A stretch of 64,000 nt of DNA from an uncultured virus (IMG/VR IMGVR_UViG_3300048599_000797) (Duplodnaviria > Heunggongvirae > Uroviricota > Caudoviricetes). Below are positions 18,570 to 47,127 of this stretch, in pieces. The notes under the pieces were generated by a model, which worked only from the letters and a program-made list of their open reading frames with translations, did no database searches and was not told the origin of the DNA. The translations under genes and the position numbers were made by a program. Position 1 is the first letter of the stretch; every line of letters begins with the position of its first letter. The DNA is taken from the IMG/VR virus record IMGVR_UViG_3300048599_000797. One strand, 5' to 3'.

Positions 18570-18572
18570 GGA

Positions 18573-22066: not shown

Positions 22067-22067
22067 G

Positions 22068-24881: not shown

Positions 24882-24889
24882 GGGCCACC

Positions 24890-26755: not shown

Positions 26756-26756
26756 C

Positions 26757-27935: not shown

Positions 27936-28240
27936 GCGTGCCTCCCAGGCCGGCGGCCGCCATCTGGAATTTGACGCGCGATGCGTAGAGCTCGTGGGCC
28001 AGCGTGGCCTCCTGGGGATCGTCGCCGCGGGCCACGAACCACTCCCGCGGGATCACCGGCTGCGCGGCGTCCTGGGTCGCGCGGAGCAGCCACCACGCGC
28101 GGCGCTGGTCCACCCGATCGGCGCACACCACGAGGCCCATCACGTCCTCAAGACTGGCCACGCGCGGGGCCCCGGGCAGGCGCAGCGCATCGAGGCCGTA
28201 GGTGGCGATCAGGTCACACCACGGGCGCCATTTTTTTTTA
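27925..28240 (-). CDS. Tail assembly chaperone, -1 frameshift extension (gpT-like)
   Basis: Open -1 frame starting at the A9 run and ending at the tape-measure start. Confidence 0.7.
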
Positions 28241-29599: not shown

Positions 29600-29622
29600 G
29601 GGCACCTCGCCACGTCACGGAG

Positions 29623-30801: not shown

Positions 30802-31227
30802 TTACACCAAGGCCGGGCGCTCGCTGCCGGCGATCAGCACCTGCACGCGCACCTTCTCGCCGGCCACGCCGGACTCGAGGGCCCGGGCGCCGATCTTCTG
30901 GATCGTGGTGCCGGTGGTGGCGATCGGTACGCCCTTCCCGTCGGCGTCGGACTTGAGCCGGTCGCCGGCGGTGACCGTGTCGCCGAGCTCCAGGGTGGTG
31001 ATGTCGCCGTCGCCGTGGAGGCGGAACGTCTCGCCATCCCGCGCGGCGTAGTTCGTCGCGATCAGGTCCGACAGCGGCGGGCGGTCGGCGCCTTCGCAGC
31101 TCACGCCGATGATGTTCGCGTTGGCGGTGGCCTGCAGCGCACCGTGGTCGGTGGCCGTGTCCTGCATCACGAACCGGCAGGGGGCGATGTTGCCGCGGGC
31201 AACCAGGTTGGGGCTAGCTTGGGGCAT
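30802..31227 (-). CDS. Capsid decoration/cement protein (DUF2190-like)
   Basis: LG.TVTAGDRLKSDADGKGV...A.ALE.G.AGE.V.V. Confidence 0.75.
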   Translation of the reverse strand: MPQASPNLVARGNIAPCRFVMQDTATDHGALQATANANIIGVSCEGADRPPLSDLIATNYAARDGETFRLHGDGDITTLELGDTVTAGDRLKSDADGKGVPIATTGTTIQKIGARALESGVAGEKVRVQVLIAGSERPALV

Positions 31228-31303: not shown

Positions 31304-33001
31304 TCACTCCAGCGGTTCGCCGCGGTGGACGCGGTCCAGCGCGGTGCCGTAGTCGAAGGGCTTGCCCGCGACGGCGCGGGCCTCGCACCAGCGCATCGCC
31401 TTGTCGGCGCACTCTTTGGCGTAGTGCTCGGTGCGCGGCTTGGGAGTCTGAACGTGGGCCGACGGGCCGACGGGCAGATCGGCGTCGAGGCCAATCTCCT
31501 TGTAGTTGGCCTCGATCAGCTCGCAGTGCGTGGCGAACTGATCGTCGCTGAGCTTCTCGTAGCGGCAGATGTCGACTTCGCGGTCGAGGTCGAACAGGAA
31601 CCGCTCGCGGAGCCCGGCGAGCTTCGAATACCGCTCGGCGTTCACCCGGCGCTGGACCTCGTCGCTCCACATCTGCCGCGTCTTGTGCAGATCGGAGGTG
31701 AGCTGCTCGAAGCGGGCGCGGACCTTGGCGTAATTCAGCTTCTGGCCCGTGCGCTCGTACTTGGCGCGCTTGCCGCAGCCGGCTGCGTAGTCCTTTTTGG
31801 CCTTCGCGCCCTTCTCCTCGGCGTGTTCCTCCTTTGCCGACTCCTTAGCCTCGTGGCCGTCGTCGTCTTCGTCGTCGTCCTCCTCCTCTTCCTCGAGCTC
31901 ATCCAAGAGCTCGTCGACGTCCACCTTCTCGTCCTCGTCGGAGCCGGCCGCATAGCGCCGCGGCTCCCCGGCGCCGAGTTTGTCCGGCTCCTTGTCCTCC
32001 TTCTTGGGCTCGCCGGGCGGCGGACTGGCGGGCTCTTCGGGAGGTGCGGATTCCGGCTCGGCGGTCGGGGGCGCGGGCTCGCCGGCCGGAGCCGGGGCGG
32101 GCTCGGGCACGGCCGGAGGCTCTGCGCCTCCTACGGGCGCCGGCGGTTCCGCCGGCGGCGCGGGTTCGGGAGGCAGACCGGCACCGGCATCCGGCGGTGG
32201 CGGGATCGCGCCCGCAGCACCCAGGTCGGCAGCCATGCCCGCTGCCGGCGGTGCGGCCCCCGGCACGCCCCCGGCGGCCGTGGAGGCAGGCGCCTGCGCT
32301 GCCATCTGCTGCTGGCACCACTGCGCCCAGTCGGTTTGAGAAATCGCCTGTACGATCTGCTGCAGATCTTCGGGAGAGAGCATACCCGTGGCTCCTGATT
32401 GGTAGCGGCGCGGCTCGTGCGCCGGGATGGACACGGAGGTCGCCGACGGCGCCGCGGCCGCCTGGTAACGCTCCACCTGGCGGCCGTCGCGATCGGCCGC
32501 GAACAGAAGGCCCATATCGAGCCGCGGCGCCTGAGCACCGAGCAGCGCGATCGGGTCCAAAAACATCTGGTCGTAGCGGTCCTCGAGCCAGAGCTCGGGC
32601 GAGCGCCGCGGGTGCTTGCGCCACTTCGCCAAGTCCTCGCGGAAGATGTGGCAGTCGGCCAAGATCGCCCACCGCTGGCGCGAACCCTGTTCGCCCAGCA
32701 GTCCCATCCGCCACGGCCCGGCAAACCCGATCAGCTCCGGCTCGGGCATCCCCGCGGCCTTCTGCTCGGCCGTGGGCGTGTGCCCGACCACGATCGCCGC
32801 GTAGTCGCCGGTCTCGCGGATCCGCTGGTTGCAGCGGGCGCACACCTGGCGGAGCTCGTCGAAGCCGAACTTCAGCCGCCGGCCGTCGGCCGCGGTGGTC
32901 TCGTGCTCGGCGAGGATCGGCACGTTGACGATCGTCTCGAACTGCGCCGGGTCGAACGCCGTGTGGGTGCCGCGCACGTTGGCCCGGGGGATGGCGTCCA
33001 T
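31304..33001 (-). CDS. Prohead protease/scaffold fusion (Mu gpI-like)
   Basis: VVGHT, IGFA, RRSPELW, IALLGAQAP; then Pro-rich, acidic and coiled-coil regions. Confidence 0.75.
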   Translation of the reverse strand: MDAIPRANVRGTHTAFDPAQFETIVNVPILAEHETTAADGRRLKFGFDELRQVCARCNQRIRETGDYAAIVVGHTPTAEQKAAGMPEPELIGFAGPWRMGLLGEQGSRQRWAILADCHIFREDLAKWRKHPRRSPELWLEDRYDQMFLDPIALLGAQAPRLDMGLLFAADRDGRQVERYQAAAAPSATSVSIPAHEPRRYQSGATGMLSPEDLQQIVQAISQTDWAQWCQQQMAAQAPASTAAGGVPGAAPPAAGMAADLGAAGAIPPPPDAGAGLPPEPAPPAEPPAPVGGAEPPAVPEPAPAPAGEPAPPTAEPESAPPEEPASPPPGEPKKEDKEPDKLGAGEPRRYAAGSDEDEKVDVDELLDELEEEEEDDDEDDDGHEAKESAKEEHAEEKGAKAKKDYAAGCGKRAKYERTGQKLNYAKVRARFEQLTSDLHKTRQMWSDEVQRRVNAERYSKLAGLRERFLFDLDREVDICRYEKLSDDQFATHCELIEANYKEIGLDADLPVGPSAHVQTPKPRTEHYAKECADKAMRWCEARAVAGKPFDYGTALDRVHRGEPLE

Positions 33002-33067
33002 CGCCGGATCGGCAGTCCGCTGCTGCGAGAGTGCCAGGCCGATGCTCAACGTACGCTCCCAAGAAAC

Positions 33068-33114
33068 AAAAAAAGCCGGCAGGCGCCGGCCCATCGGGGC
33101 GAGCACCTGCCGGC
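33068..33114 (-). terminator. Intrinsic terminator upstream of the protease/capsid genes
   Basis: gccggcagg/cctgccggc stem plus T7. Confidence 0.7.
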
Positions 33115-33135: not shown

Positions 33136-33360
33136 TTAATCCTCGGGAAACTCGACTAAGGTCCGTTTCACCGGTCCCAGGTTCCCGGCCTTGGCGGAAA
33201 TTTCCACACCAACCGTGCCGGTGAACCGCGGGTCGAGCGCCCGAGCGAGGAGTCCTTGGAGGATCGACACGGCCTGGATCTTGCGAGCCCGGTTGACGTC
33301 GGCCCTGCGGATCTCCTCGCGTTCTGTGGGTGTTTTCTCGTGCGAAAAATTCTTGGTCAA
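33136..33360 (-). CDS. Small DUF2292/YezD-like protein
   Basis: FTGTVGVEISAKAGNL pattern; GGAG before TTG. Confidence 0.5.
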   Translation of the reverse strand: MTKNFSHEKTPTEREEIRRADVNRARKIQAVSILQGLLARALDPRFTGTVGVEISAKAGNLGPVKRTLVEFPED

Positions 33361-33407
33361 GATGCAGTCTCCGCCGCGGAGTGAAGGAACCGATCGGCGG
33401 GCAGTAT

Positions 33408-33441
33408 CCGATTTGCCAGAATTTGCGTCCAACCCTACACT
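33408..33441 (+). promoter_or_regulatory. Promoter for the ugd cassette
   Basis: ccgat-TTGCCA-17-TACACT. Confidence 0.65.
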
Positions 33442-33481
33442 GGTCCCCCGTTCTTTTCTCCTGGCGGCGGAGATTCTTGAG

Positions 33482-34423
33482 ATGGGCGATCGAATTCAGG
33501 GGATCGGCGTGGTCGGGCATGGCTTTGTCGGGCGCGCGGTGGCCCGTCAGTTTTCCAAGGCGATGCGCGTCTACTGGTACGACTCGGCCGAGGGCGGCAG
33601 CGGTGGCCAGTGGATGGATGGGCAGCCACTGTGGGACTGCACCAACATGGACGAGGGCGGTCGTAAGCATTGGGCCGCCCAACTCTGCCAGGCGTGCGAC
33701 GGGCCGATCTTCATCTGCGTCCCCACGCCCAGCCGGCCCGACGGTGCCTGCGACACGTCGATCGTCGAGCAGGTGATCCGCGAGCTCGAGGAGCACGCGC
33801 CGGCCGACTACCGCAACGTGGCGGTGATCAAGAGCACGGTATCCCCGGGCACCACGGACCGCCTCCAACAGCTCTCCACCAAGTGGCACCTGGTGCACAA
33901 CCCGGAGTTCCTCACCGAGCGCACCGCGGACCAGGATTTCGCAGCGCAGAGCGAGATCTTCCTCGGGGGCCCCGCGGTGGCCACGGCCGCGGTCGCCGAG
34001 TTGTACCGGCAGGGCTTCGACAAGCACGGGCTGAGCATGTATCCGCTCGAAATCCACCACATGCCGGCCATCGAGACCGAGCTCATCAAATACATCCGCA
34101 ACGCGTTCTACGCGGTCAAAATCGAGTTCGCCAACGAGATCTACGACCTCTGCCAGCGGCTGGGCGTGGATTACAGCCAGGTGATCGGCCGCGGGATTGT
34201 CGGTCACCCCTGGTGCGGTGAACAGCACTGGGCCGTCCCCGGGCCCGACGGCATGCGCGGCTTCGGTGGCAAATGCTTGCCCAAGGATCTGCTGGGACTC
34301 GTCGCGCTCTGCCATCAGCACGGCGTGATACCTAGCGTGATGTTCACCGCGTGGCAGCAGAACACGCTGCGCCGGCCGCTGGACAAGATGCAGGAGCTGT
34401 TCCCGATCCTCTCTCCCAGTTGA
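33482..34423 (+). CDS. ugd: UDP-glucose/GDP-mannose dehydrogenase family (short form)
   Basis: GVVGHGFVG; FICVPTP; IKSTVSPGTT; HNPEFL; KY..NAF.A.KI.FANE; GFGGKCLPKD. Confidence 0.93.
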   Translation: MGDRIQGIGVVGHGFVGRAVARQFSKAMRVYWYDSAEGGSGGQWMDGQPLWDCTNMDEGGRKHWAAQLCQACDGPIFICVPTPSRPDGACDTSIVEQVIRELEEHAPADYRNVAVIKSTVSPGTTDRLQQLSTKWHLVHNPEFLTERTADQDFAAQSEIFLGGPAVATAAVAELYRQGFDKHGLSMYPLEIHHMPAIETELIKYIRNAFYAVKIEFANEIYDLCQRLGVDYSQVIGRGIVGHPWCGEQHWAVPGPDGMRGFGGKCLPKDLLGLVALCHQHGVIPSVMFTAWQQNTLRRPLDKMQELFPILSPS

Positions 34424-34436
34424 ACGGAGTTGCGCC

Positions 34437-34895
34437 ATGGAGCTCGTGGAAGCCTTGGAATCGATCTCGAAGGCCAGCCGGCAAGACGTCGAGGCGAATA
34501 TCCGCGAGCTCGAGCTGCGAATCGAGACCGTGCGCCGCCGGGCCCGGGCGGAGGTCGCCGATCTGCGGACCACGATCGCCACGCTCCGCAAATTCGCAGG
34601 GATGGGCAAGCGCAAAGCCGGTCCGGCACCGGTCGAACACAAGCCGTCGGACGAGGCCTGTCGCGAGGAGGGCCAGCGCCAGGCTGACAAGGAGCCCCAG
34701 CCGCCCAAGCCATTGAGCCAGGTCCAACGGATCAAGAAGTACCTCGAGGATCTCGGCCGCCCAGCCACGCCGAGCTTGATTGCGGTTGGTACCGGCATTC
34801 TCAAGTCGTCGGTGAGCTCGCAGCTCGCGCAGCACCACGAGCTGTTTGCGCGGGCCGACGACGGTTGGACCGTCAAAGAACGTCCCATGTCGTAA
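34437..34895 (+). CDS. Coiled coil plus C-terminal winged-HTH protein
   Basis: IKKYL...G.PAT...IA...GI.KSSVSSQL...F......W. Confidence 0.65.
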   Translation: MELVEALESISKASRQDVEANIRELELRIETVRRRARAEVADLRTTIATLRKFAGMGKRKAGPAPVEHKPSDEACREEGQRQADKEPQPPKPLSQVQRIKKYLEDLGRPATPSLIAVGTGILKSSVSSQLAQHHELFARADDGWTVKERPMS

Positions 34896-34906
34896 GGAGA
34901 AACGCC

Positions 34907-35287
34907 GTGCCCTTTTCACCGTTCGCCACGTACCTGCTGGTGGTGTTGCTCGTCCTGCTCGTGGTTTCCGTGGCGGCGAACATCACGCTGGCTCGGCTGC
35001 TGGTCGCGGAAAGCCGGAGTAAGGCCTACTGGTGGCAGGAGGCGCAGGAGGCGCGGCAGTCGCTGGCGATGCGGGATCACGCCCAGGTCGCCGAGGTCCG
35101 CAATGACATTGTCGCCCGCATGAATCTGGCCGTCGAGCTGGCGGGCGATTTCTACGAGCAACTGCAGGACGTGCTGGCGGGCTTTCCCCCCGAGGACGAC
35201 GAGGAGGAAAGCGAAGCGACGAGCGAATCCGAATCCAGCATCTCGTCCATATCGACGACTATGTCCTCGAGCATGCCACTCACCTAG
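34907..35287 (+). CDS. Membrane-anchored protein with acidic/Ser-Thr tail
   Basis: N-terminal TM; AAGGAG RBS; ends ESEATSESESSISSISTTMSSS. Confidence 0.6.
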   Translation: MPFSPFATYLLVVLLVLLVVSVAANITLARLLVAESRSKAYWWQEAQEARQSLAMRDHAQVAEVRNDIVARMNLAVELAGDFYEQLQDVLAGFPPEDDEEESEATSESESSISSISTTMSSSMPLT

Positions 35288-35308
35288 TCACCACGAGGCC
35301 TCCGCATC

Positions 35309-35863
35309 ATGCTCATCGTCTGGTCGTCGGTTGCCACCATCCTCTGCATCGTGATGGCGATCCTCCTGGTCCTGGCGATCCACACGCAGCGCCGGCTGCT
35401 GAAAACCGTTGCCAACGAGCGGGCCCGCATCGATCGCTGCGTCACCTCCACCGGACGCTATCTTGAACGAGCTGATCGCCTCGATGCCGCCTTGCAACGC
35501 ACCGAGTCCGACCTGCGCGATGCGCTGGCGTCGCGCGACAGGTGGGCGGACAAAGCGGTGACGTTGGAGAACGAGCTGAAGCAGGCACAAGCCGCGTTGG
35601 CCGACGAGGGCGTTAAGAATGGCGAATTGATGAGCTTGGTTTGCAAGCACGAACAGCGGATCAGTGAGCTCGACAACCAGGTGCAAGTACTCGGGCTGGC
35701 CAAAGTCAACACGCAGAAGCGCGCCGACGAATTCGAGAAAGCGGCCACGCAGTTGTCTGCGGATAATCGGAGGCACTTGGAGATCATCGGCGAGCGGTTC
35801 GAGCAGCTCGAACGCATCGCGGCGATCGCAAGCGAGCACCTGCCGGGCCACGGGGAGGACTAA
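35309..35863 (+). CDS. Membrane-anchored coiled-coil protein
   Basis: N-terminal TM then heptads. Confidence 0.65.
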   Translation: MLIVWSSVATILCIVMAILLVLAIHTQRRLLKTVANERARIDRCVTSTGRYLERADRLDAALQRTESDLRDALASRDRWADKAVTLENELKQAQAALADEGVKNGELMSLVCKHEQRISELDNQVQVLGLAKVNTQKRADEFEKAATQLSADNRRHLEIIGERFEQLERIAAIASEHLPGHGED

Positions 35864-35865
35864 TC

Positions 35866-36054
35866 GTGAACTGGTTCGACCGAATTTTCTTCTGCATGCT
35901 TGGCACGCTGGCTCGCCTTGGAGCGTTGACCGTCACCGGCTTGGCGACGGCGGACCTCGTGCGGCATGGGCACCTGCCGGATGATCAGATCCTTCCCATA
36001 CTCTGTATTTTCGCAATGTGCTGCGCCCTGTGGAACGTGGACCGGCAACCATGA
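35866..36054 (+). CDS. Small membrane protein
   Basis: GGAGG RBS; hydrophobic. Confidence 0.5.
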   Translation: MNWFDRIFFCMLGTLARLGALTVTGLATADLVRHGHLPDDQILPILCIFAMCCALWNVDRQP

Positions 36055-36305
36055 GCCCAATCTGGATTATCTTAGGCTGTCTTTCGGTCGGCGTGAACGT
36101 GGTGCTGGCAATCGTAGCCCTCACCCAGTGCGACGACGTGGAACGAGCCAACCGCATTCGTGACAAGGCTCGCCGGGAAGCCGACAAGGCGAGGAAAGAC
36201 GCCGCCCTAGCCCGCTCTGAGCTCGCGGACGCCCACGCCGGCCGGGTGTTCTACAAGGAGCTGATCCATAAGATCCACCATTTGATCAATGGGGATGATC
36301 CGTGA
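36051..36305 (+). CDS. Small membrane-anchored protein
   Basis: ATGA coupling; N-terminal TM. Confidence 0.55.
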   Translation: MSPIWIILGCLSVGVNVVLAIVALTQCDDVERANRIRDKARREADKARKDAALARSELADAHAGRVFYKELIHKIHHLINGDDP

Positions 36306-36799
36306 ATCAACCCAACTGCCTGTTCGGCATGCAGATCCTCGCCTGCGACTGGGCCGCCGACACGGTGTGGACCCAGGTCCGCTTCCCGCGTTCGAAGAAG
36401 CGACGGATCCGCAGGAAGTGGGCCAAGGACCGGCGGAACTACCGGGCCGTGACCACGCCCTGGGAACACGCCTACGTCATTGAGGGCAAGACGATCGTCA
36501 TGCACCCGAGGATGGTCGCCAAGCTGGAGCAGGCCTCCCGCGAGTTCCAGCAGGCCACCTGCGACCGGATCGGCCGCGAGATCGCGGCGCGGACCAACGA
36601 GCCGTCGCCGTTCTTCGCCGCGCTGCCCACGCTCCAGGCACCGCTCAATGCCGCGAGCTCGATCGACGCGTTGGCCGACAAAGTGTTTCGCGACTTGGTG
36701 CGGCTCGCCGGAATTCCGCGGCTGCTGTTGGACGGGAAGGCGAGCTACTCGAGTTACTATTCGCTGCCCCGCTATCCACCCACCACGCTGCTGCTTTGA
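36302..36799 (+). CDS. Hypothetical phage protein
   Basis: GTGA coupling; RSKKRRIRRKW...MHP motif. Confidence 0.65.
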   Translation: MNQPNCLFGMQILACDWAADTVWTQVRFPRSKKRRIRRKWAKDRRNYRAVTTPWEHAYVIEGKTIVMHPRMVAKLEQASREFQQATCDRIGREIAARTNEPSPFFAALPTLQAPLNAASSIDALADKVFRDLVRLAGIPRLLLDGKASYSSYYSLPRYPPTTLLL

Positions 36800-36981
36800 T
36801 GCAAGTCTGGCAGGTGTATCTCGAGGTCCGCAGATCGTTCACGTGGCTCGGCCAGGTGGAGGCCTCGACCAAGGAGATCGCCCTCGGCAAGGCTCAGAAG
36901 CTGCCGGGCAGTAACCGCCCACGCCGGCCGGGAACCCGGCTCACGGTGCGCTGCGAGCCTCCCCCGGTAGTCATTCGATAA
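36799..36981 (+). CDS. Hypothetical protein
   Basis: TGATG coupling. Confidence 0.5.
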   Translation: MQVWQVYLEVRRSFTWLGQVEASTKEIALGKAQKLPGSNRPRRPGTRLTVRCEPPPVVIR

Positions 36982-36994
36982 GAGGATCGCCAGC

Positions 36995-37285
36995 ATGCCC
37001 CAGGAAACGCACTCCATCCCTGAGTGGATCGAACTCCTGGTGAAGGACATGCGGACCGTCGACGACAAGGTCGACGAGATCGTCGCGTGGGTTCACCGAC
37101 TGGAGAAACGCCTCGAGGAGCTCGAGCAACCTAGGGTCGGCCTGGTCATGCGCGAGCGGATCCTTAACAGCAATGTGCCGGTGCGGCTCATCGATCTGCT
37201 GCCGCCCATGGAGGGCATCAAGACCGTGCCGCAGCCCCACGTCACGCAGGAGCTCGTCGGCGTGTTCTGGGAGGGGCCGGGCTAG
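36995..37285 (+). CDS. Hypothetical protein
   Basis: GAGG RBS; short coiled coil. Confidence 0.55.
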   Translation: MPQETHSIPEWIELLVKDMRTVDDKVDEIVAWVHRLEKRLEELEQPRVGLVMRERILNSNVPVRLIDLLPPMEGIKTVPQPHVTQELVGVFWEGPG

Positions 37286-37355: not shown

Positions 37356-40300
37356 TCATGCGTCCTTGGCCGGCTTGGTGACTTTCCCGCCTTCGGTCCA
37401 CCGCTTGAACTGCTCGAGCGTCATAGGCACGATCGACTCGAACCCGTCCCAGCCGGCCGTGTAGTTGTCCTCATAGAGCTCGCGCGACTCCTCGGCCGAC
37501 AGGCACCCGACGACCACCTTGTGCTCGTCGAACTTGCGGCTCTCAGGGTCGACCTGGTTGACGACGAACACCAGCTCGCTCTCGAGGTGCGGGCCGACGA
37601 ACACGTCGAGCTCGTCCTTGTCCTTGCCCTTGATCCCCGCGAAGTAGCCGTAGTCGTGTTTCATCTCGATCGCCCACGGCTCGCCGGCCTTGTTGATCCC
37701 GGTGCGGATCGAGCCCTTGGGGTTCTCGAGCACGATCTCCAGATCCTTCCACTCCACGCGGCCCTTGGCGTAATTGCCGGCATTCTTCTGGGCGTAACTG
37801 GCATCCGTGTCGGTCGCCTCGCGCGCGTCTTGGAGCTCGGCGTGGGTGAGCTCGGACTGATACCGAATCAGGCCCACGCCGGCGAACGCGCGGTTGAACT
37901 GCTCCACCAGGCCGCTCCGCTCGAACCGCAATACCGCGCGACCCTCGCTGTACCTCAGCGAGTAGCGGCCCTTCTGTACTCCATCGCGAAAGCTCTCCAA
38001 AATCTTCTCGAAGTGCGGCGCCATCGCGTCTGTCTCGGCGTCGTTGGGCCACAGGCCAATTCCTTCCGACCCGCTGGCATTCGGCGCCAATCCGGCCAGG
38101 TAGGTGTTCTTCTGGCCGCGCTTTTCCAGCTTCCGCTGTACAAACCGCTCGAAGCTACGGGCGAACACCTCGCGGCCGGTTCGCCAGTAGTTATTGGCTT
38201 TGTCCTCGGAGATCAGGCCGTCGTTTACGGCCTTCTGTAGCACGCCCCGCAGACGATCGTGGAAACCGCTCTCACGCCAGCTCTGGCGGAGCCCATCGTA
38301 GGCCTGAAACAAGGGCTCGCTGGAGCGATCGATGGTTTTCACTCGCCCCTTCTCATCCAGTTCCACGCCGTGCGGGCCGCGCGGGTCTTTCGCAAACCGT
38401 TTGGCACTGGTTCGCTCTGACTCGTAATCCCCGCTGGAATGCCCGTCCATATCGCCGGAGACCGCGAACCCGGCCAGCGCGTGATCAAAGAAGTGTCCCC
38501 ACTCGTGTGCCAGACTACCCGCTCCGCTGGCCCGCGTGAGGTTGATCACCACACTCCCCGGCTCATAATGCGCGGTGGCGTTGCCCTTGCCCCGTGCGCC
38601 GTAGGCAATCCCCAGCCTGCCCTTCCAGGACACGTATTCCGCGGGCACCCCCAGCACGTCGGACAGATCCGTGAGGGCCTCGGCCGATTTAAGGAGATGG
38701 TGCTCCCGCTCTTCATCGGTTACATAGTTCCCGAACTGTAACCCGCGGAGTTGCATCTTCTCCACAAGGGTCATTTTGGCCGACCGCTGGTCGTGAATTC
38801 CGAGATCCTTGCCCTCGCGGACGGCCTTCTTCACATAGGCCTGGGCCGTATCGAATCGCTTGCGGCTTTCACCCTTCGTGCCAAAGGTTTCGTTCAAGCT
38901 TCGGCCTTCGATCACATCGCCAGCATGCTGCCCCATGGTCTCGTTGAGCGTGTCAGGCGACCAGTCCTCTTCCTCCAGTCCATACTTGTCCTTGAACGCC
39001 CGCGAAAAGTCCTCCAGCCGGTTCTTGATGGCCTTCGTTCCGAACCGCGATCGGACGCCCTGCAGGGCCTTGTGCAGCCCCACCAGGCTATTCGCCGTGT
39101 CGTTGAAGCGGTCGCTCGCGGTGACCTGATCCATGTATTCCGCGCCCTTCTGGCCGCGGTACTTGCGGATCAGCTCGCTCACCTTGTCGTCAAGCCTGTG
39201 GCAGGCCTCGTACGCATCGACGTCGCTGGCGGCCAGACCCTCAGCCGCCGTCTTGACTTCGCGGTAGGCATCAAGGTACTGCTGGCGGTTTTTCTTCTGC
39301 TCCTCTTCGCTGGGCGAGCCTCGCCGCTTGGCGTACCCGGGCTTGGCCGGGAACACCCGCAGCGCCTGGTGCATGGCCAGCGCAGTCAGGGGGTTATGCG
39401 CCACGTGGAGCATCAGCTTATGCGGCTCGTTTTTGAGCAGCATCTCGCGGGTTACCAACTCAGCCGCGGTCCCCTCGCGCTCTGCGTCGTCGAGTCCCTT
39501 CCATGCGTTGGCCTTGTGCCGCGCGGATCCGAGGAGATCCTGTCCGACGTTGGAAACCTTGCTCTTCCGGGCAAAGGCGTATTGCTCGTCGGTATCGCGC
39601 TTCGTTTGCCGTGCTGCCTGTTCGCGGGGAGTTTCGGACGGAATCTCAGGGGCCGTGCTGGGCGTCTCGAGAGTCGCGTTCTCTTCGGGGGACTGCGGAT
39701 CGGAGATGGGCGAAGCGGACGACTGCTCGCCGCGAATCCGCTGCTGCGCAGCGCGGTACTGCGGCAGCCAGGCCTCGATCGGGCGCGGCTCGAGGTGCCC
39801 CTTGACGAATTCCCGATAGTCCTCGTAGGCCGCTTGTTCTTCGGCGGTGGTCTGGCCGCCATCCTTTTCCGCGAACTTTCCATCCGCTTCACGCGGGTGC
39901 CGGTCTTCGTCCCAGTCCACCTTCTGGTAGCGCTCCGGCCGGTACTGACGGGCAAAGCGCTCCACGAGTTCGGGATCCTCCCGGGAATACCGCACTGAAG
40001 GACCGTCCCCCTCTTTGGGTGGATTGAGTTTCTCACCGCTTCGGCCGATACTTCCTGTAGAAAGCCCGGGGGTACGAGGTGCGGCTGAGCCTGGCTCGGC
40101 GGCCTCCTTTGGCCCGGGCTTTCTGATTTCCTGGATGTCTTCGATCGTGTACAGCGAGGCCCCTGCCCGCTCGTTCTTCTTCTCGCCCACGACCAGCACC
40201 AGTTCGGTCGGCCGGCCTGCCAGTTCTGCTTCGGCGTGGAAATACAACCACCGATCAAACCTGGGGGCTGCCGTGTTGTGGTCTGGCGCGTCGTGCAAAT

Positions 40301-42857
40301 AGGCTGCCTGGCGGAGCATCTCGGGCAGAGCTGGAAGCAGTTGGAGCCGGCGGATGTCTCCACTGTGGCTGATCAGCTCATCGATCCCCTGTCGTGATAC
40401 GGTGATGTGGATTGCCGTCTCTTCGTTCGGCAGCGGGCGGCGGAGGTTCTGTTGCCAATACGCAAATGCTCCCTTCCGAATCTCCGCCTTGGATTGGCCT
40501 AATTCGTTCCCGGAGAGCTTGGGCATGGACGGCTGCTCGCCATCCCGACGCAAACGCTTCCAACGATGATTGGCGTTGAGCTCATAGGTCCGGCCCGCCA
40601 CGCTCTTTATCTCTCCCACGCTGTGCTCTGCCGAGTACAAACGTCGTTCGCTCGGTTCCGGCGTCTCGGGCCGTTTCTGCGATTTGGTGCCCGCCACGCT
40701 GGCCACGGTCTTGCCCAGACCCTTGAGTGCATCCACCGGGCCCGGGCCCTTGGGGCGCGGCTCGGGCGTCGACGGCGGCGCCGGCGGTGCCATGGGAGGT
40801 GGCGCCGGGGCTTTGGGGGCGTCTGCCTGGCGGCCGCTGTCGATCCCCGAATTGATATCACGCTGCGGTTGGCCGGGCAGGGCGTATTGCTCGATCCGCT
40901 CCCGTTTGCCTGTGGCGCCGAGGTCGACCATCAGGTAGTAGTCGGGGTTCTCTCGCAAGTGATCGGCCGCGATGCGGGCCGCCTGGGCGATGTCGTCGCC
41001 ATGCTCGAGCTCCACCAGCACGCCCTTCAGAAACTGCTGCCGCTCGACCTTGGCGCCGCTCTCCGCTTCGTACGTGCGGACCTTCACCCGCTCAGAGTTC
41101 TCGGGAAAAGGGTTGGGGGTGACCGCGAACTGTGGTTCGCCCTCCTGTCCCGAGGCGGCCGCCTGCGGTTGCGGTTGCTGTTGTGGCAGTTGCGCGGCCT
41201 GCGGCGTCTCGGGCAGCATCAGCCCCCGGTTGCGCAGGATCTCCTCCATCTGCACCGCGGTCAGCTTCTGCTGCAGCTCGTCGACCGTGAGCAGGGGGCC
41301 CGTGCCGCGGACCTGGGCCCGCGTGGCGGCCTTCTCCTGGGCCACCTGGCGTTGCTGCTGGGCCTCGGCCTGCGCCTGCTGTTGCTGCGCCTGCTGCAAT
41401 TGCTGCTTGGCCTGTTCGACCATCGGGTTCACCAGCACCTCGTCGCTGGCCTCCGGCGCGGTGGCGCCGATCATCGCCATCACGTCGGTTTCCTTGAGCT
41501 TGCAGCCCATCTCGTACGCCTGCCGCCACGCGTTGAGCTTGCTCTCCACGTCCGGCGACTCGGTCTGCGTCACGAACTGCACGTGGACGTTTCGGGCCCA
41601 CGGGAAATTCTTCTCCTTCAAGGGATCGACGATGTCGGTGGTGATCGTCTCGTCGAGATTCTTCGCGTCGTACCGCACGATCTGCAGGTACGTGTCGAGA
41701 TGAATCGACGCGAGGTTCGACCCCAAACCCGTGGAGGCGGCCTCGGTGGTCAGCGTCTGGCCGAGGATGTAGCGTTTGATCTGGTGGCCAAACAGGTCGG
41801 TGATGATCGTCTTCAGCGTCTCAGCGCCGGCCATCCCCGTCTCGAGCTTCTCCACGCCATAGGCCTGGCTCGTGGCGTTGAGCGGACGCGGCACGAGGAT
41901 CACGTTCCGCCCGCCGCCGATCCGCTCCTCAGCCGCGGTGCGCATTTCCTTTTCGGCCTTGGCAGAGCCCCACGGGTAATACCAGATCTCCAACCCGAAC
42001 GCGGACCGCTCCAGAAACTCCATCAGCCAGGCCAGGGCCTCACGGGCCTGGTACCAGGTCCAGTAGATCCGGTGGCGAATCCCCACGCCGTGGATCCGGC
42101 CGGCGGACCACACGTCTTCGTACTCCCCGTCTTCAATGCGGTGCGTGTGCACCGCCATCAGCTTTCGCTCGTAGCCCTCCAGAAAATACGCCATGCCGCA
42201 GTCGGTCGGCTGCACCCGATTGGGGTCGAGGTTCTTGTTCATCATCCAGGTCGGGCCCACGCGGATCCCGATCTGATCGGGGTCGTAGTCGCCCGATCCA
42301 TCGTCCAACCGGAACACCAGCTTGTCGCCATGCACCGGGCGCCAGCGATCGATGGCCACGCACTTCTTGCCGCCGATCCACTTCCACCGGTAACGCATCG
42401 ACACGCCGTATTTGCCGTACCACAGCGCCTCCTGCAGACTCTCCCGCAACTGGTGAAAGCGCTTGGTGCGCTCGAGGATCCGCGTCAGGTCGTCGCAGAG
42501 CTGCTGCTGCCGCTGGTCTTTTTCGTCCTCGGGGACCAGGTGCCAGTCCAACAGGCACACGCTCCGCTGGCGATGCTCGAGGCATTCCATGATCGCCAGG
42601 TCATTCCGCATGTACCTGGCGTTCTCACGCGAGGCGAGCAGGGCCTGGTCGCTCGGCCGGTAGACCTTCGAGATGGAGCTCATCAGGCCCTGGAACGAGA
42701 TCACGTGCGGGATCACGTCCTCACCGAAATTCGGCGGCATCCCCGGCACGTCCAGCGCCGGATCGTGGTAGTTGAGCCGGGCTTTGTTCTCCAGGCCCTT
42801 GAGGAAATTGGCGGGCTGGGACGCGGGATCGATCGACGGGCTAACGCCGGTGGACAT
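37356..42857 (-). CDS. Portal (DUF935/Mu gp29-like) fused to polyvalent cargo domains (DUF5661-like, LPD3-like, zincin/LPD1-like, inorganic-PPase-like)
   Basis: Portal ALWYG and ILGQTLTT; VELEH...ADHLRENPDYY; QFGNY...AHYEP...INLT...SLAHEWGHFFDH; YW....EVFARSFE; ENPKGS.R...DYGY...DELDVFVG...FDEHKV. Confidence 0.85.
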   Translation of the reverse strand: MSTGVSPSIDPASQPANFLKGLENKARLNYHDPALDVPGMPPNFGEDVIPHVISFQGLMSSISKVYRPSDQALLASRENARYMRNDLAIMECLEHRQRSVCLLDWHLVPEDEKDQRQQQLCDDLTRILERTKRFHQLRESLQEALWYGKYGVSMRYRWKWIGGKKCVAIDRWRPVHGDKLVFRLDDGSGDYDPDQIGIRVGPTWMMNKNLDPNRVQPTDCGMAYFLEGYERKLMAVHTHRIEDGEYEDVWSAGRIHGVGIRHRIYWTWYQAREALAWLMEFLERSAFGLEIWYYPWGSAKAEKEMRTAAEERIGGGRNVILVPRPLNATSQAYGVEKLETGMAGAETLKTIITDLFGHQIKRYILGQTLTTEAASTGLGSNLASIHLDTYLQIVRYDAKNLDETITTDIVDPLKEKNFPWARNVHVQFVTQTESPDVESKLNAWRQAYEMGCKLKETDVMAMIGATAPEASDEVLVNPMVEQAKQQLQQAQQQQAQAEAQQQRQVAQEKAATRAQVRGTGPLLTVDELQQKLTAVQMEEILRNRGLMLPETPQAAQLPQQQPQPQAAASGQEGEPQFAVTPNPFPENSERVKVRTYEAESGAKVERQQFLKGVLVELEHGDDIAQAARIAADHLRENPDYYLMVDLGATGKRERIEQYALPGQPQRDINSGIDSGRQADAPKAPAPPPMAPPAPPSTPEPRPKGPGPVDALKGLGKTVASVAGTKSQKRPETPEPSERRLYSAEHSVGEIKSVAGRTYELNANHRWKRLRRDGEQPSMPKLSGNELGQSKAEIRKGAFAYWQQNLRRPLPNEETAIHITVSRQGIDELISHSGDIRRLQLLPALPEMLRQAAYLHDAPDHNTAAPRFDRWLYFHAEAELAGRPTELVLVVGEKKNERAGASLYTIEDIQEIRKPGPKEAAEPGSAAPRTPGLSTGSIGRSGEKLNPPKEGDGPSVRYSREDPELVERFARQYRPERYQKVDWDEDRHPREADGKFAEKDGGQTTAEEQAAYEDYREFVKGHLEPRPIEAWLPQYRAAQQRIRGEQSSASPISDPQSPEENATLETPSTAPEIPSETPREQAARQTKRDTDEQYAFARKSKVSNVGQDLLGSARHKANAWKGLDDAEREGTAAELVTREMLLKNEPHKLMLHVAHNPLTALAMHQALRVFPAKPGYAKRRGSPSEEEQKKNRQQYLDAYREVKTAAEGLAASDVDAYEACHRLDDKVSELIRKYRGQKGAEYMDQVTASDRFNDTANSLVGLHKALQGVRSRFGTKAIKNRLEDFSRAFKDKYGLEEEDWSPDTLNETMGQHAGDVIEGRSLNETFGTKGESRKRFDTAQAYVKKAVREGKDLGIHDQRSAKMTLVEKMQLRGLQFGNYVTDEEREHHLLKSAEALTDLSDVLGVPAEYVSWKGRLGIAYGARGKGNATAHYEPGSVVINLTRASGAGSLAHEWGHFFDHALAGFAVSGDMDGHSSGDYESERTSAKRFAKDPRGPHGVELDEKGRVKTIDRSSEPLFQAYDGLRQSWRESGFHDRLRGVLQKAVNDGLISEDKANNYWRTGREVFARSFERFVQRKLEKRGQKNTYLAGLAPNASGSEGIGLWPNDAETDAMAPHFEKILESFRDGVQKGRYSLRYSEGRAVLRFERSGLVEQFNRAFAGVGLIRYQSELTHAELQDAREATDTDASYAQKNAGNYAKGRVEWKDLEIVLENPKGSIRTGINKAGEPWAIEMKHDYGYFAGIKGKDKDELDVFVGPHLESELVFVVNQVDPESRKFDEHKVVVGCLSAEESRELYEDNYTAGWDGFESIVPMTLEQFKRWTEGGKVTKPAKDA

Positions 42858-42869: not shown

Positions 42870-44075
42870 TTATCCGCCGGGGCCAGTGGTCCCGCGGGTG
42901 CTGAGAGTCCGCGCCACGTTGATGTCGGGCGCGGGCGCGACCGGCAAGACCGAGGTCAGCCGGCGCTGGGATTGAGTCCAGATCGTGCGCGGCTTGAACC
43001 ACTCGCCGACCTGGCCCTTGTATTGCGGGTCACCGGTGACGGTGTAACCCTCGCCGTAGATCGCCTTGCGCGGCACGTAATCGCCGGTGACGCCTACAAG
43101 CTGGTAGTCGTACTGGTGCCCGCTCCACGTGCCTTGGATGCGGATGTGGCGCCAGAGCCATTCGCCCTTGCTCTCCGTGAGCAGGAGCGACTCAAACAGG
43201 TTCTCGGGGACGTCCGAGTAGCGGTACAGCGGCCCGGGGACGTGCGGCGGGATCTGCCCTTCAGCCAGGCCCTTGCGGGCCGAGGGATCGATGTACCGCA
43301 CGTAGAGCGATTTGCTGACCAGGTCGTAGCCGAACGAGTGCACGTTGCTCGAGGCCACCGCGTCGACCATCTCCCCGGTGACGATGGGGTGCGTGGGCGA
43401 CCATACGCGTTCCTCGCCCTGCAGCGTCTGGCCCACCACCACGTCGCCCTGGGGCGGCACCGGGAACGGCATCCCGGGGACGCGGGCGTTGACCTCGGCG
43501 ATGTCTTCGTCGCGGGCGCCGTGCCCACCGACCTCCACGCCCCGATCGCGGAGGAACGCCAGAGCGGCGCGCGTGGCGCGGGCCATGTCGCCCACGTTGG
43601 CCCGGGGCTTGCCCGGGGGCGGCAGCACCTCGTAGCCATGGGCCCGCAGCAGGCGGATCGCCGACTCCAGGTCGCGATCGAGCGCCGTCTGCCGCCGGCG
43701 GGCGCCCTCCTTGCCGCCGCGGCCGATTCCGCCCACCAGGGCCCACACCAGGTCGCCGGCCGGCCCCATCGAGTGCAGGAAGTCCTGCACCACGGCATGG
43801 CCGGGCCCGCGGGCGTAGCGCTCGATCGAGTGCGTGAAGGTGGCGAAATCCACGCCCCACAGGTCGCGCATCACGGCCCGCGTGTCGCCCGAGCGGGCAA
43901 AGCGCTCGATCGCCCCGCTGACGATCGCCGCGGGCTTGGTGCCGCGGGTGCCGGCCGCCTGGACGTTCCGCACCAGCTTGGCAATCTCGGTCGCGCCCCA
44001 GTCGGCGCGGGCCTGCGAGCGGAACTGGCGCGAGGCCTGGGTGAACAGCGGCGAGTGGGAAAACGGGTCGGGCAT
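42870..44075 (-). CDS. KTSC-domain protein
   Basis: VASSNVHSFGYD....LYVRY...YRYSDVP...F..LL...SKG.W. Confidence 0.75.
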   Translation of the reverse strand: MPDPFSHSPLFTQASRQFRSQARADWGATEIAKLVRNVQAAGTRGTKPAAIVSGAIERFARSGDTRAVMRDLWGVDFATFTHSIERYARGPGHAVVQDFLHSMGPAGDLVWALVGGIGRGGKEGARRRQTALDRDLESAIRLLRAHGYEVLPPPGKPRANVGDMARATRAALAFLRDRGVEVGGHGARDEDIAEVNARVPGMPFPVPPQGDVVVGQTLQGEERVWSPTHPIVTGEMVDAVASSNVHSFGYDLVSKSLYVRYIDPSARKGLAEGQIPPHVPGPLYRYSDVPENLFESLLLTESKGEWLWRHIRIQGTWSGHQYDYQLVGVTGDYVPRKAIYGEGYTVTGDPQYKGQVGEWFKPRTIWTQSQRRLTSVLPVAPAPDINVARTLSTRGTTGPGG

Positions 44076-44326: not shown

Positions 44327-46015
44327 TCAGTAGTCCACGCCCGGCCGCAGCCGGTACACGCTCCCCAGGCCGCCCATGGCCGCGCGATCCAACTGGACCC
44401 CGTGGCGGTCCGAGTACTCCTGGTGCTTGTAGCTCGAGGGCACCATCCCGCGCTGCCGCTCCACGGTGTAGATCATGTACCGCAGCGCGTCGGCCAGGTC
44501 GTCGTCACGCTTCAGCGGCTGGGGCTTGGCGACCTTGGGGTTGAGCAGGTTCGCCTCGCTCGGCTTGCGGCTCCGCATCCAGCGATACTTCCGCATCTGC
44601 TGGATTAGGCGCACGCAGTTGCGGCCGATGTGCAGCTTGGGCTTGAGATTCTTCGGGTTCAGCTTCAGCATCGAGCGCACGCAGTTGATCCCGCCGTAGA
44701 CCTCGTTGTTGGCGGCCAGGGTGTTGATCCCCAACTCGCTGAACTCGGCGAGCTCGCCCGGCCGGCTGGGATCGGCGAAGCACTCACCCCAGCGACAGTA
44801 GCCCCGCACGCGCTTCACGCCCGACCTGCGGAGCTCCTTGTAACGCTTGCCCACCATCCGGTACCAGCCGCGGTTCTCCGCGATCCACTCCGGGTCGCGC
44901 CACTCCTCGGGCATCGGCCAGCCGTAGGCCAGCGACCGGGCCAGGATCTCGCACGCGTGGTCGCGGGTGATCGAGCCCTGGCTCGGGTTCCAGTACTCGT
45001 CGTAGATCCACCAATCGCCGATCCCGTCGCGATAGCCCCACACGTTGGCCTGCGGGTGCTCTTCGCTGGCGCCCCAGTCATTGCCGAGGTAGTGCTCACA
45101 GCCGGGCGGAAACTTGATGTCCTTCGGATCCACCACGTGCACGTTGACGTCGAACGACTCGTAGATCTGGTTCTCAAACCGCGCCAGGGCCCCGGTCATG
45201 CGCGTGTCGCGGAGCTCATCCGGCACCAGGCCGAAGAACTGCTCGAACCAGCCGCTGGCCAGGTTTTCCTTGTTGAGCTCCGTGTTCGCCCGGTAGAACT
45301 TCCAGCCGGCCGGGGGCTTTTCCATCACGACCTCCAGCCACGCGCAGAGCTCGGGATCGATCGGGCAAAACTCGGAGAACTGGCCGCCGGGAAACATGTA
45401 CTCGCGGCAACCGCGAAGGACTTCGATGAACACGTCCAGCACGAACTGCTCGCTGAACCAGAAGCCGCCGATCGAGCGGGCCTGCATGGCCGCCCGGCCC
45501 TGCTCATAGCTCTTGAACTCGATCACCCAGTTCTTCCCGGGCCGGCCCGACCAGGCCTTCAACGGGACCGAGGCGGGCATGTTCTCCCGGCGATCGAGCC
45601 AGGCGATCTCCTCGTAGCAGATTTCCGAGGCCGGGATGTGCCCGTGCCCCTCGAGCTTCTCGCCCCAGCACGTTTTGCAGACCTGGTCGTAGTTATTGCT
45701 GAGGATCCAGAAGGGCGTGTTCTTGCGTGGCGGCGGCTGATTGAGCAGGAAGTTCGCACACTTGAAAGCCGACGATTCGGTCTTGCCGGAGGCGTTGCCG
45801 CCGATCAGGAAGGCCACCGGGTCCTTGCCGTACACGTAGCTCGAGTGCTGGTCGAACGACTCGACCTTGTCCGGCCGCGGCTTGAGGTTCATGTACCCCA
45901 GCGGCGCTTCGTCACAGGCGCGGTAGTTCAGCAAATACGGGTCGGTCGCCAACAGCTCCTTGGCGTAGTCCCGATCCGCGCCCTCGAATCCCGCCAGCAG
46001 ATCAAGCACACTCAT
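44327..46015 (-). CDS. terL: Terminase large subunit
   Basis: Walker A GGNASGKT; FKSYEQGR..MQ; nuclease GNDWG, YDEY, ADPS, DDDLADALRY. Confidence 0.92.
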   Translation of the reverse strand: MSVLDLLAGFEGADRDYAKELLATDPYLLNYRACDEAPLGYMNLKPRPDKVESFDQHSSYVYGKDPVAFLIGGNASGKTESSAFKCANFLLNQPPPRKNTPFWILSNNYDQVCKTCWGEKLEGHGHIPASEICYEEIAWLDRRENMPASVPLKAWSGRPGKNWVIEFKSYEQGRAAMQARSIGGFWFSEQFVLDVFIEVLRGCREYMFPGGQFSEFCPIDPELCAWLEVVMEKPPAGWKFYRANTELNKENLASGWFEQFFGLVPDELRDTRMTGALARFENQIYESFDVNVHVVDPKDIKFPPGCEHYLGNDWGASEEHPQANVWGYRDGIGDWWIYDEYWNPSQGSITRDHACEILARSLAYGWPMPEEWRDPEWIAENRGWYRMVGKRYKELRRSGVKRVRGYCRWGECFADPSRPGELAEFSELGINTLAANNEVYGGINCVRSMLKLNPKNLKPKLHIGRNCVRLIQQMRKYRWMRSRKPSEANLLNPKVAKPQPLKRDDDLADALRYMIYTVERQRGMVPSSYKHQEYSDRHGVQLDRAAMGGLGSVYRLRPGVDY

Positions 46016-46238
46016 CCAAAGGCGCCTCCCCGGGGTCTTCGATGCACGCCACGCGGGCCGCGGTGCGCACATCCAAGAACCCGACGAGCCAATGCACGCG
46101 GTTCGGCCCGCGCGGGCAGTCGCCCTCGCCAGCCTCACCATGTTTCAAAAACGCCTCCCGCCCCGCGTTGTACGCGCGGGGGTTCACGCGCCGCGAGTCG
46201 CAGCGGTCGACCGGCACCTCGGGCTTAGCCTTCGCCAT
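46002..46238 (-). CDS. Small Rmf-fold-like protein
   Basis: AYNAGREAF....CP....R.HWL.GF. Confidence 0.55.
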   Translation of the reverse strand: MAKAKPEVPVDRCDSRRVNPRAYNAGREAFLKHGEAGEGDCPRGPNRVHWLVGFLDVRTAARVACIEDPGEAPLDECA

Positions 46239-46491: not shown

Positions 46492-47127
46492 CTACTGTTT
46501 GGCCACTTGTGCCCCGTACCGCTCGCAGACCATCGCCTCGTGCCGTTTCCGCTCCGCCACGCGTTCGGCCAGGTACTTGAGCGCCTCCTCGTCGATCTCC
46601 TGCCGCGTCTTGCCGGCCACGCGGAAATCGGTCTCCAGCGAAATCTTCTCCGCGGCATAGATCCCAGAGACCTTCGAAAACCAGTCCAGGCACCACCGCA
46701 CATAGTCCAGCCAGCAGGCCTCGCCGGTCCTGGTCGTGGCCCGGCTCACACGCTCCACCACGTCGCCGTCGACGCCTTCCTTCGCCAGCGTGCGCTTGAT
46801 CTGCTCCATCGTCTGGGGCTTCTGCGACTTCTGGAACTGCGCCCAAGCCACGGTGTAGAGGTGCTCCACCTTGAGCACGATCTCCTCGATCCGACTCTCC
46901 CAGATCGTGCGCTGCTTGGGGATGATCGAGGCGCCGAGGTGGTACTGGACCGTCGATCGATCGCAGCCGAGCTGCTTGGCAATCCAATACAGGCTGCGGC
47001 CCTCGCACCACCAGATGCGGATCCGCTCGATGTTCTCGGGCGTGCCCACGCGCTGCTCGGGATGCGGTTTCCCCGGGGCTCGATGAGCCGGCGCGGGAGC
47101 CGTTCGCTGCTGGTTCTGTTTGGCCAC
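46492..47127 (-). CDS. Putative terminase small subunit (HTH)
   Basis: GRSLYWIAKQLGCDRSTVQYHL; upstream of terL. Confidence 0.65.
   Translation of the reverse strand: MAKQNQQRTAPAPAHRAPGKPHPEQRVGTPENIERIRIWWCEGRSLYWIAKQLGCDRSTVQYHLGASIIPKQRTIWESRIEEIVLKVEHLYTVAWAQFQKSQKPQTMEQIKRTLAKEGVDGDVVERVSRATTRTGEACWLDYVRWCLDWFSKVSGIYAAEKISLETDFRVAGKTRQEIDEEALKYLAERVAERKRHEAMVCERYGAQVAKQ

Follow-up and report, generated by a model that had tools for sequence, protein, structure and literature searches.

How does a phage portal protein come to carry a series of enzyme-like domains behind its C terminus, and what could become of them in the head? The question is raised by P0001, a gene in a stretch of 64,000 nucleotides (nt) from an uncultured virus of the Caudoviricetes (IMG/VR record IMGVR_UViG_3300048599_000797); this whole stretch is referred to below as the window. 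A first-pass annotation, made from the letters alone, had read P0001 as a portal protein fused to effector cargo of the polyvalent-protein type and had proposed that the portal ring acts as the loading device. We find that the portal and four cargo modules almost certainly form one genuine reading frame, that relatives keep the portal and exchange the cargo, and that the joints between modules carry a short motif which might be read by a candidate head protease. Amino acids (aa) are numbered from the start of P0001, which is laid out as follows:

37356..42857, minus strand: portal-cargo gene P0001, 1833 aa, ATG start, translation without internal stop
41475..42617, minus strand: Mu-type portal core, aa 81-461 (Pfam PF06074 Portal_Mu (DUF935), E 1.9e-36)
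41058..41429, minus strand: Gln-rich, then Pro/Gln-rich linker, aa 477-600 (from the sequence)
40932..41048, minus strand: DUF5661 module, aa 604-642 (Pfam PF18905, E 8.4e-07)
40560..40589, minus strand: TYELNANHRW motif, aa 757-766, N-terminal companion of LPD3 (from the sequence)
40167..40493, minus strand: LPD3 module, aa 789-897 (Pfam PF18798, E 1.3e-14)
37956..39560, minus strand: helical N-terminal half and predicted zincin-like metallopeptidase, aa 1100-1634, ~535 aa (Pfam, model and fold search)
37395..37793, minus strand: InPase (family I pyrophosphatase-like) at the C terminus, aa 1689-1821 (Pfam PF18823, E 8.3e-47)

Portal core and cargo modules of P0001

The single stop-free frame of 1833 residues described beforehand is confirmed by the list of open reading frames (ORFs) and by the translation. 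Its parts lie within a few residues of where they had been placed, and the short motifs named at the time are found at aa 757-766, aa 982-995 and aa 1451. Such a frame could also arise by an assembly or sequencing error linking a portal gene with a distinct polyvalent-protein gene downstream of it, and split forms do occur among the relatives (L002, L031, L042 and L070). A second record, however, contains the same fusion in a protein of 1808 aa (P0002), which is identical to P0001 save for an in-frame deletion of 25 residues (aa 1193-1217). We searched for long homologues in a restricted length range (1008-3208 aa) and obtained 231 matches with E<=0.001 among 8000 scored candidates; the 120 listed matches are the relatives counted below. 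All 120 are fused, with PF06074 always N-terminal and the cargo behind it, and 36 of the 69 complete portal ORFs in related IMG/VR loci are extended as well. The GC content at third codon positions (GC3) is coding-like over the entire frame. Because P0002 differs only by an in-frame indel and the long relatives are likewise fused, the fusion is almost certainly no artefact, and a joining error, which the first-pass annotation had wanted checked, is highly improbable. The indel itself (39207-39281) falls within the helical half of the zincin module; exactly 75 nt are absent from the near-identical record, and the flanks are imperfect repeats, GATGC[C/G]TAC.

P0001 is the sole portal-like ORF of the window. 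Its match to Portal_Mu scores 126.5 bits against a cut-off of 23.9 and covers profile positions 5-332 of 336, and a PHROG portal family (phrog_113) is matched over aa 68-539 with an E-value of 3.1e-26. A profile of our portal alignment A1 matches the solved structures 8rka_A (2.2e-13) and 9khx_X (1.5e-05), both of which are named 'Portal protein'. The Portal_Mu profile and this relation to solved portals together bear out the assignment of the N terminus as a portal. The glutamine-rich linker reported behind the core is also present. It probably comprises a barrel helix and a flexible tether, a reading that we adopt because of the analogy with the portal barrel of E217 and Pa193. In the portal gp19 of the Pbunavirus E217, residues 97-528 of 765 have been modelled and the C-terminal barrel projects into the head. 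In the corresponding structure from Pa193 (gp19, PDB 9b41), residues 529-765 are without density, and the Pa193 supplement gives a Mascot score for gp19. With one portal gene in the window and a barrel that in E217 projects into the head, the suggestion that the portal ring loads its cargo at twelve copies appears to be a reasonable inference.

Behind the linker we recovered every domain that had been named, namely DUF5661, LPD3, zincin/LPD1 and InPase, by Pfam and fold search, and five Pfam families in P0001, including that of the portal, score above their curated cut-offs. The PHROG matches of P0001 beyond the portal are to large phage proteins, mostly of unknown function. The DUF5661 match corresponds to a stretch singled out earlier by its ELEH/DHL.E.PDYY pattern. 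The TYELNANHRW segment accompanies LPD3 also in P0019, P0026, P0047 and P0052, and in P0131 and P0035 it is directly followed by RY[AS].

The third module contains the sequence HEWGH at aa 1451-1455 (nt 38493-38507) and an LPD1 match at aa 1552-1623 (Pfam E 3.3e-13). His-1451, Glu-1452, His-1455, Glu-1563 and Glu-1570 are invariant in the 19 sequences of alignment A3. An AlphaFold2 model of aa 1100-1690, calculated with 19 sequences, reaches a predicted local distance difference test (pLDDT) score of 79.8. Its N-terminal half is helical, and LPD1 makes up the last, C-terminal helices of the zincin-like domain. In a VIA-wide comparison with 48,161 chains, the best match of the modelled aa 1342-1634 is the catalytic domain of anthrax lethal factor (Z 9.0, root mean square deviation (rmsd) 4.0, 181 residues aligned), followed by the hydrolase 3dl1 (Z 8.5) and by the Pro-Pro endopeptidases PPEP-2 and PPEP-3 (Z 7.4 and 7.3, respectively). 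Foldseek found no match with E<=0.001 for the model of this module in the PDB. With an HExxH sequence, a downstream glutamate and a zincin fold in the model, aa 1342-1634 is predicted to be a zincin-like metallopeptidase.

The InPase match at the C terminus scores 158.9 bits against a cut-off of 26.8 and covers profile positions 2-134 of 135. The domain has its homologue in aa 636-761 of the solved portal of Pa193 (9b41_L, E 1.9e-27). It retains the residues found without variation in 65 homologues, including Glu-1711, Asp-1746, Asp-1748, Asp-1751, Asp-1777 and Glu-1778, the exception being Asn-1767 (37557-37559). This position is an aspartate in 62 of 65 relatives, an asparagine otherwise only in P0054 and a lysine in P0112. 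We take the acidic residues to be metal-binding, as in family I pyrophosphatases.

P0001 combines at least two unrelated conflict-type domains and is encoded in a head/packaging module together with portal and terminase functions. That its cargo domains are of the kind found in polyvalent proteins agrees with Iyer et al. 2017 (PMC5512222). A closer kinship to the DarA/DdrB-type proteins of phage P1, which had been suggested as well, did not hold up: Pfam detects no DarA-N, DdrB-ParB or DarB methylase-helicase domain in P0001. We likewise discarded a likeness to DarB, as the PHROG match labelled 'DarB-like' covers the zincin/InPase part only (aa 1450-1830). A MuF (Phage_Mu_F) domain was found by Pfam neither in P0001 nor in 24 fused or split relatives scanned, including 9 stand-alone cargo proteins.

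Relatives with a constant portal and changing cargo

We searched the portal part (aa 1-520) against 1.84 billion representatives and obtained 1732 matches with E<=0.001, 943 of them with E<=1e-30. The best 150 representatives are 46-65% identical to P0001, except for P0002, which is identical over the portal part. Among these 150, 142 are longer than 625 aa (up to 3126 aa) and 8 are not. Farther out, the share of extended portals drops to the above-mentioned 36 of 69 complete ORFs in IMG/VR loci and to 13 of 39 in GTDB genomes. A search for loci with the single portal sequence returned no close-relative loci; the alignment-based search succeeded. The portal part is matched only weakly in 50,697 isolated-phage records, 8 times and with at most 26% identity, and whole P0001 is matched in pieces of its cargo only, none of the 660 matches covering 80% of it.

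Across the 120 listed relatives the recognised cargo families are InPase (65 proteins), LPD1 (29), DUF5661 (15), LPD3 (12) and ART-PolyVal (10), and 21 proteins have no recognised cargo family. An ADP-ribosylating toxin domain, topoisomerase IB, 2H phosphoesterase, sigma-70, zeta toxin and methyltransferases occur as well, and the IMG/VR relatives add a SAM lyase and a PAPS reductase. The earlier claim that the effectors are swappable is thus well supported, the portal being constant and the cargo varying across relatives. The block corresponding to aa 1101-1630 moves as a single unit in 29 of the 120 listed relatives. InPase mostly sits directly after the portal; it lies within 40 aa of the C terminus in 7 of the 65 InPase-bearing relatives and is not terminal in 58.

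The codons of the middle cargo had been described as lower in GC, and GC3 indeed shows this: it amounts to 0.895 for the portal part and 0.93 for InPase, compared with 0.65-0.78 in aa 700-1100 and 0.72-0.77 in aa 1300-1600. The other head and tail genes of the window range from 0.87 to 0.95, and total GC is nearly constant along P0001 (0.61-0.69). GC3 would fit an ancestral portal-InPase protein into which the middle cargo was inserted later, but we rejected this scenario, as the order of the modules varies among relatives and InPase is usually found right behind the portal. We claim only that modules have apparently been shuffled and that the middle part, with its lower GC3, may be more recent.

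Some relatives encode their cargo as a separate gene in the same slot. In one locus (L002), a 532-aa portal is followed by a separate 1846-aa InPase-LPD3-LPD1 gene, and in another (L047) a portal-InPase fusion is followed by a 1674-aa zincin/LPD1 gene. Stand-alone proteins comprise 1577 aa with sigma-70 and InPase in L042, and 2062 aa with a 2H-helicase-intein-InPase arrangement in L070 (3282-9470). The LAGLIDADG/Hom_end matches of the L070 cargo gene lie inside the helicase region and look like an intein.

A joint motif, a tag and a candidate head protease

The inter-domain segments of P0001 share a short motif, [R/K]-Y-[A/S/Q], with other head genes of the window. The features concerned are:

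39918..39998, minus strand: joint with VRY/SRED (Y957) and ERY/QKVD (Y977), two candidate protease sites
39873..39914, minus strand: WDEDRHPREADGKF tag, aa 982-995, sole copy in the window
37854..37970, minus strand: joint between LPD1 and InPase with Y1632, Y1636 and Y1666, three candidate protease sites
31304..33106, minus strand: p600, 600 aa, candidate head protease (aa ~49-191), Pro-rich linker and scaffold-like tail (synteny and model)
42870..44075, minus strand: 401-aa KTSC-domain protein (Pfam KTSC, E 5.7e-10)
30802-31227, minus strand: cement/scaffold-like protein
29677-30717, minus strand: major capsid protein (basis given jointly with the cement gene: PF22758, E 1.5e-06, and phrog_673; phrog_1005 weak)

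The motif is carried by module joints, by the scaffold and by the leaders of stand-alone cargo genes, and the tag follows one joint. All 5 strict sites of P0001 are located in inter-domain linkers, and none is found in the portal core or in a Pfam domain. Of the 19 copies of [RK]Y[ASQ] in the 44 proteins of the window, 13 belong to four head genes, with 4 in p600 (0.36 expected), 5 in the portal gene (1.74 expected), 2 in the capsid gene (0.2 expected) and 2 in the KTSC gene (0.29 expected). The tail-side genes between 14553 and 28556 contain one copy. The tails of 23 p600 homologues contain 16 copies of RYS (0.6 expected) and 19 of RYA (1.7 expected). RYS ranks first among the seven most enriched tripeptides of these tails, which also include ERY, YSR, YSK and RYA.

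A similar distribution is seen around InPase in 64 relatives, with 17 motifs in the 20 aa before the domain, 0 inside and 36 in the 20 aa after it, where ~2 per bin are expected. The context after InPase in the relatives is GQVS[RK]Y[AS][KR], and the P0001 domain ends ~2 residues short of their RY/A position. Six of nine stand-alone cargo genes have a motif within their first 40 aa. The first motif behind the portal core is never found within 40 residues of it and is most frequent at a distance of 60-80 residues (21 of 205). In KTSC homologues, E-[R/K]-Y-[A/S]-[K/R] is present in ~30 of 67 at about aa 83-128, as though an N-terminal piece were trimmed. The capsid protein has NRY/AQ at aa 38, which recurs in 3 of 22 homologues, and RRY/AF at aa 98 (8 of 22), a possible N-terminal maturation site.

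The tag has the pattern [W/F]-x-E-x-x-H-P-R-x3-G-x-F, with glycines behind it. No tripeptide is more enriched than HPR in the cargo of 202 portals (177 versus 19.1 expected), and we counted 178 full tags in 132 of 203 extended portals. Often the tag lies 5-15 residues after RY[AS]; it is placed likewise in P0001, in the context ERY/QKVDWDEDRHPR. We found neither the joint motif nor the tag described in the literature searched.

A candidate for the reader of these sites is p600, whose gene lies between the portal and the cement/capsid genes in 25 related loci. Glu-67, His-109, Thr-110, Ser-169 and Glu-171 of p600 are invariant and His-68 is nearly so; the tail is charged and helical. The model of aa 49-191 has a pLDDT above 90, and its top 2 matches among the 48,161 chains are the gp21 protease of T4 (Z 6.8, rmsd 4.5, 117 residues aligned) and the varicella-zoster virus protease (Z 6.3). 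The human cytomegalovirus protease is matched with a Z-score of 5.0, and an Atlas lead is in line with these matches. Based on this model, p600 is likely a fusion of an assemblin/gp21-fold protease with a scaffold. An alternative assignment of p600 to the Mu gpI-like/P2 gpO-like family (PF10123, PF05929), for which an Atlas lead is the sole support, was rejected: there is no Pfam match, and hhalign against Mu gpI gives a probability of 0.08. Taking joints, tag and p600 together, we tentatively suggest that the motif and the tag could constitute a shared cut-and-address code read by the assemblin-fold protease-scaffold, a proposal that we regard as possible but still doubtful.

Proposed loading, release and delivery of the cargo

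In our working model, P0001 would be made as a precursor consisting of the Mu-type portal core, the flexible linker and the four cargo modules. As the portal C terminus would face the head interior, each of the twelve ring subunits would bring one cargo chain into the procapsid, giving twelve copies per virion without a separate packaging signal. The [R/K]-Y-[A/S/Q] joints would then be cut by p600 (31304-33106), possibly aided by the zincin of the cargo itself, and the WxExxHPRxxxGxF tag after one joint may represent a header common to head-cargo modules. The freed modules would be ejected together with the DNA and would become active at an early stage in the next host, where InPase would target pyrophosphate or a nucleotide signal, and the peptidase the polyprotein or host proteins. 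On balance we lean towards this chain of portal loading, cutting in the head and ejection with the DNA as a whole, and each step after the fusion is put forward with less confidence than the fusion itself.

Several observations weigh against the model. The fold Z-scores of p600 are all below 8, the level that the tool sets for a safe match, and Foldseek finds nothing for the p600 model in the PDB at E<=0.001. There is no Pfam match in any of the 23 members of the p600 family and no sequence match of p600 in the PDB, and by hhalign p600 is not similar to Mu gpI. The motif was in part defined post hoc. P0001 has no strict site from the portal core up to aa 957, only weaker look-alikes (RTY/E at 596, EQY/A at 658 and RLY/S at 741), and DUF5661 and LPD3 might therefore remain on the ring. 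Two of the 5 sites in P0001 are RYQ, a form that cargo in general does not show in excess (11 versus 13.7 expected). The motif after InPase could belong to the domain rather than mark a cut site, since GQVS[RK]Y[AS] is so conserved. Covariation with p600 is weak: cargo has 1.93 motifs per 1000 aa where a p600 homologue is present versus 0.99 where it is not (17 versus 11 sites). Finally, the InPase copy of P0001 may be weak, inactive or repurposed, because Asn-1767 replaces a near-universal aspartate.

Two other fates of the cargo have to be considered. The modules might be freed by their own zincin-like peptidase instead of the head protease, in which case the motif would be a non-cutting feature of the linkers or the site of the zincin itself. 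The invariant HExxH and downstream glutamate, the matches to zincin endopeptidases in the fold search and the presence of the module in 29 of the 120 listed long relatives are consistent with this idea, and self-processing by zincins was proposed for polyvalent proteins in general by Iyer et al. 2017 (PMC5512222). The other 91 listed relatives, however, carry multi-module cargo without LPD1/zincin, and the motif is enriched also in the protease-scaffold, the capsid N terminus and the KTSC protein, which are classic substrates of a head protease. We thus consider release by the zincin rather unlikely. Alternatively, the cargo may stay tethered to the ring and never be delivered, forming an internal body or a DNA-organising mass, or it may be active, for instance in removing pyrophosphate, in the head or in the producer cell. 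The stretch without a strict joint motif from the portal core to aa 957 would be in line with such a tether, and the unseen C-terminal 237 residues of the E217 and Pa193 portals could equally well belong to a flexible tethered domain or to one that has been cleaved off. Yet the cargo of the relatives (ADP-ribosyltransferase, SAM lyase, sigma factor, topoisomerase, methyltransferases) suits a host cell and not a capsid, and the same modules exist as free-standing genes with leader-like N termini. A permanently tethered cargo hence seems quite improbable to us, and we retain loading by the portal with release by p600 as our working model.

Genomic setting and known systems

The remaining genes of the head module and the island within it are:

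46492-47127, minus strand: helix-turn-helix (HTH) protein
44327..46141, minus strand: large terminase (PHROG terminase families, E 1.6e-13)
33191..37285, plus strand: island of six ORFs, splitting the head module between the portal and the 600-aa gene
29090-29605, minus strand: Mu gp36-like adaptor

P0001, the only portal gene, lies beside the large terminase and upstream of the protease, scaffold and capsid genes. The gene order recurs in related IMG/VR loci; in 80 of these we found the KTSC gene, which is placed between terminase and portal, 67 times, the 600-aa gene 25 times, the cement gene 23 times, the capsid gene 22 times and the adaptor 18 times. According to an Atlas lead, a 93-member cluster has KTSC joined to a portal of another family. 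The plus-strand island is no part of the portal-cargo system. It contains a protein resembling UDP-glucose/GDP-mannose dehydrogenases (Pfam 3e-18 and 4.6e-18), and 5 of its 6 ORFs have no homologue in the 80 related loci. It resembles a moron island and occupies the slot in which relatives keep cargo genes. Seven large ORFs (115-1338 aa) on the minus strand at 14553-28556 presumably encode the tail, and have no Pfam or PHROGs match at E<=0.001. We detected no tRNA within the window.

Related portals in GTDB genomes come from 54 loci (L082-L135), 45 of which are labelled as Planctomycetota lineages; we take Planctomycetaceae, Pirellulales, Thermoguttaceae, Schlesneria and Fuerstiella to be such lineages. 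Some of these portals appear to be those of prophages, because they are found on contigs of 1.1-2.4 Mb. Since the related portals are mostly in Planctomycetota genomes, the host of the phage represented by the window is probably a planctomycete, and the lineage probably consists of Planctomycetota (pro)phages without a cultured relative. To our knowledge, hardly any phages of Planctomycetota have been cultured.

Fusions of enzymes to portals, and the idea that they are packaged and injected, have been published before for InPase, PBECR, 2H, Nudix and ART domains. Iyer et al. 2017 (PMC5512222) describe InPase, PBECR and 2H domains fused to portal domains (BcepF1.124 of Burkholderia virus BcepF1), with packaging and injection inferred, and the 2022 survey by the same authors adds portal fusions with Nudix, 2H and ART domains. 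A portal-InPase fusion also sits unnoticed in the solved Pbunavirus portal entries. The Pbunavirus and BcepF1 portals resemble P0001 in having the portal N-terminal and InPase behind it on one chain. In P0001, by contrast, InPase comes after three other modules and lies ~1200 residues from the portal. The portal cores are not close either: no E217/Pa193-like record is among the 8 weak matches in isolated phages, and the sole Pseudomonas match of the portal part is phage Bise, with 23.8% identity.

Like polyvalent proteins, P0001 unites a number of unrelated modules (LPD1, LPD3, zincin-like peptidase, InPase) in a single polypeptide whose gene lies among those of the head, and a homologous zincin/LPD block is found in Shiga toxin (Stx) phages (29.6% identity over aa 1293-1657). 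Proteomics of the virions of phi24B, also an Stx phage, showed gp47 to be abundant, a large LPD5/LPD1/LPD38 protein that may or may not be the one behind these matches. Classic polyvalent proteins are separate, however, whereas in P0001 the cargo shares its chain with the essential portal, so that both the number of its copies and its location in the head are set. In MuF fusions (SPP1 gp7/Mu gp30), too, a head-assembly protein carries swappable C-terminal enzymes, and the MuF slot directly after the portal is the same gene slot as here, but in P0001 the carrier is the portal itself. The portal gp29 of Mu belongs to the same Portal_Mu family, and its last 124 residues are absent from the virion structure, which the authors attribute to cleavage by protease I. 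In contrast to the cargo of P0001, the tail removed in Mu is short and without a known enzyme, and p600 has no profile likeness to gpI.

The likeness to T4 is one of mode of action. The T4 internal proteins IPI-III and Alt are loaded into the prohead via a capsid targeting sequence, trimmed by the gp21 protease and ejected with the DNA. The model of the p600 N-terminal domain matches gp21 best, but loading would here occur via covalent fusion to the portal instead of via an N-terminal peptide with affinity for the scaffold core. The candidate motif, read here from sequence, is [R/K]-Y-[A/S/Q], compared with L/I-x-E for T4 gp21.

P0001 thus represents a bigger, multi-module case of portal-enzyme fusion in an uncultured lineage, and adds breadth rather than a new principle. 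Proteins carried in the head decide the first minutes of an infection, and their loading is understood in few model phages only. P0001 exemplifies the simplest loading rule, that of being part of the portal. Should the cut-and-address code be true, these mostly Planctomycetota phages could hang any enzyme on their portal, or encode it adjacent to the portal with a short leader, and each enzyme would enter at a fixed dose and come free as a module of its own within the head. If the head protease truly reads the joint motif and the tag, both would supply a rule, open to testing, by which head cargo could be recognised in metagenomic phages, and also a principle of design for filling capsids with proteins of choice.

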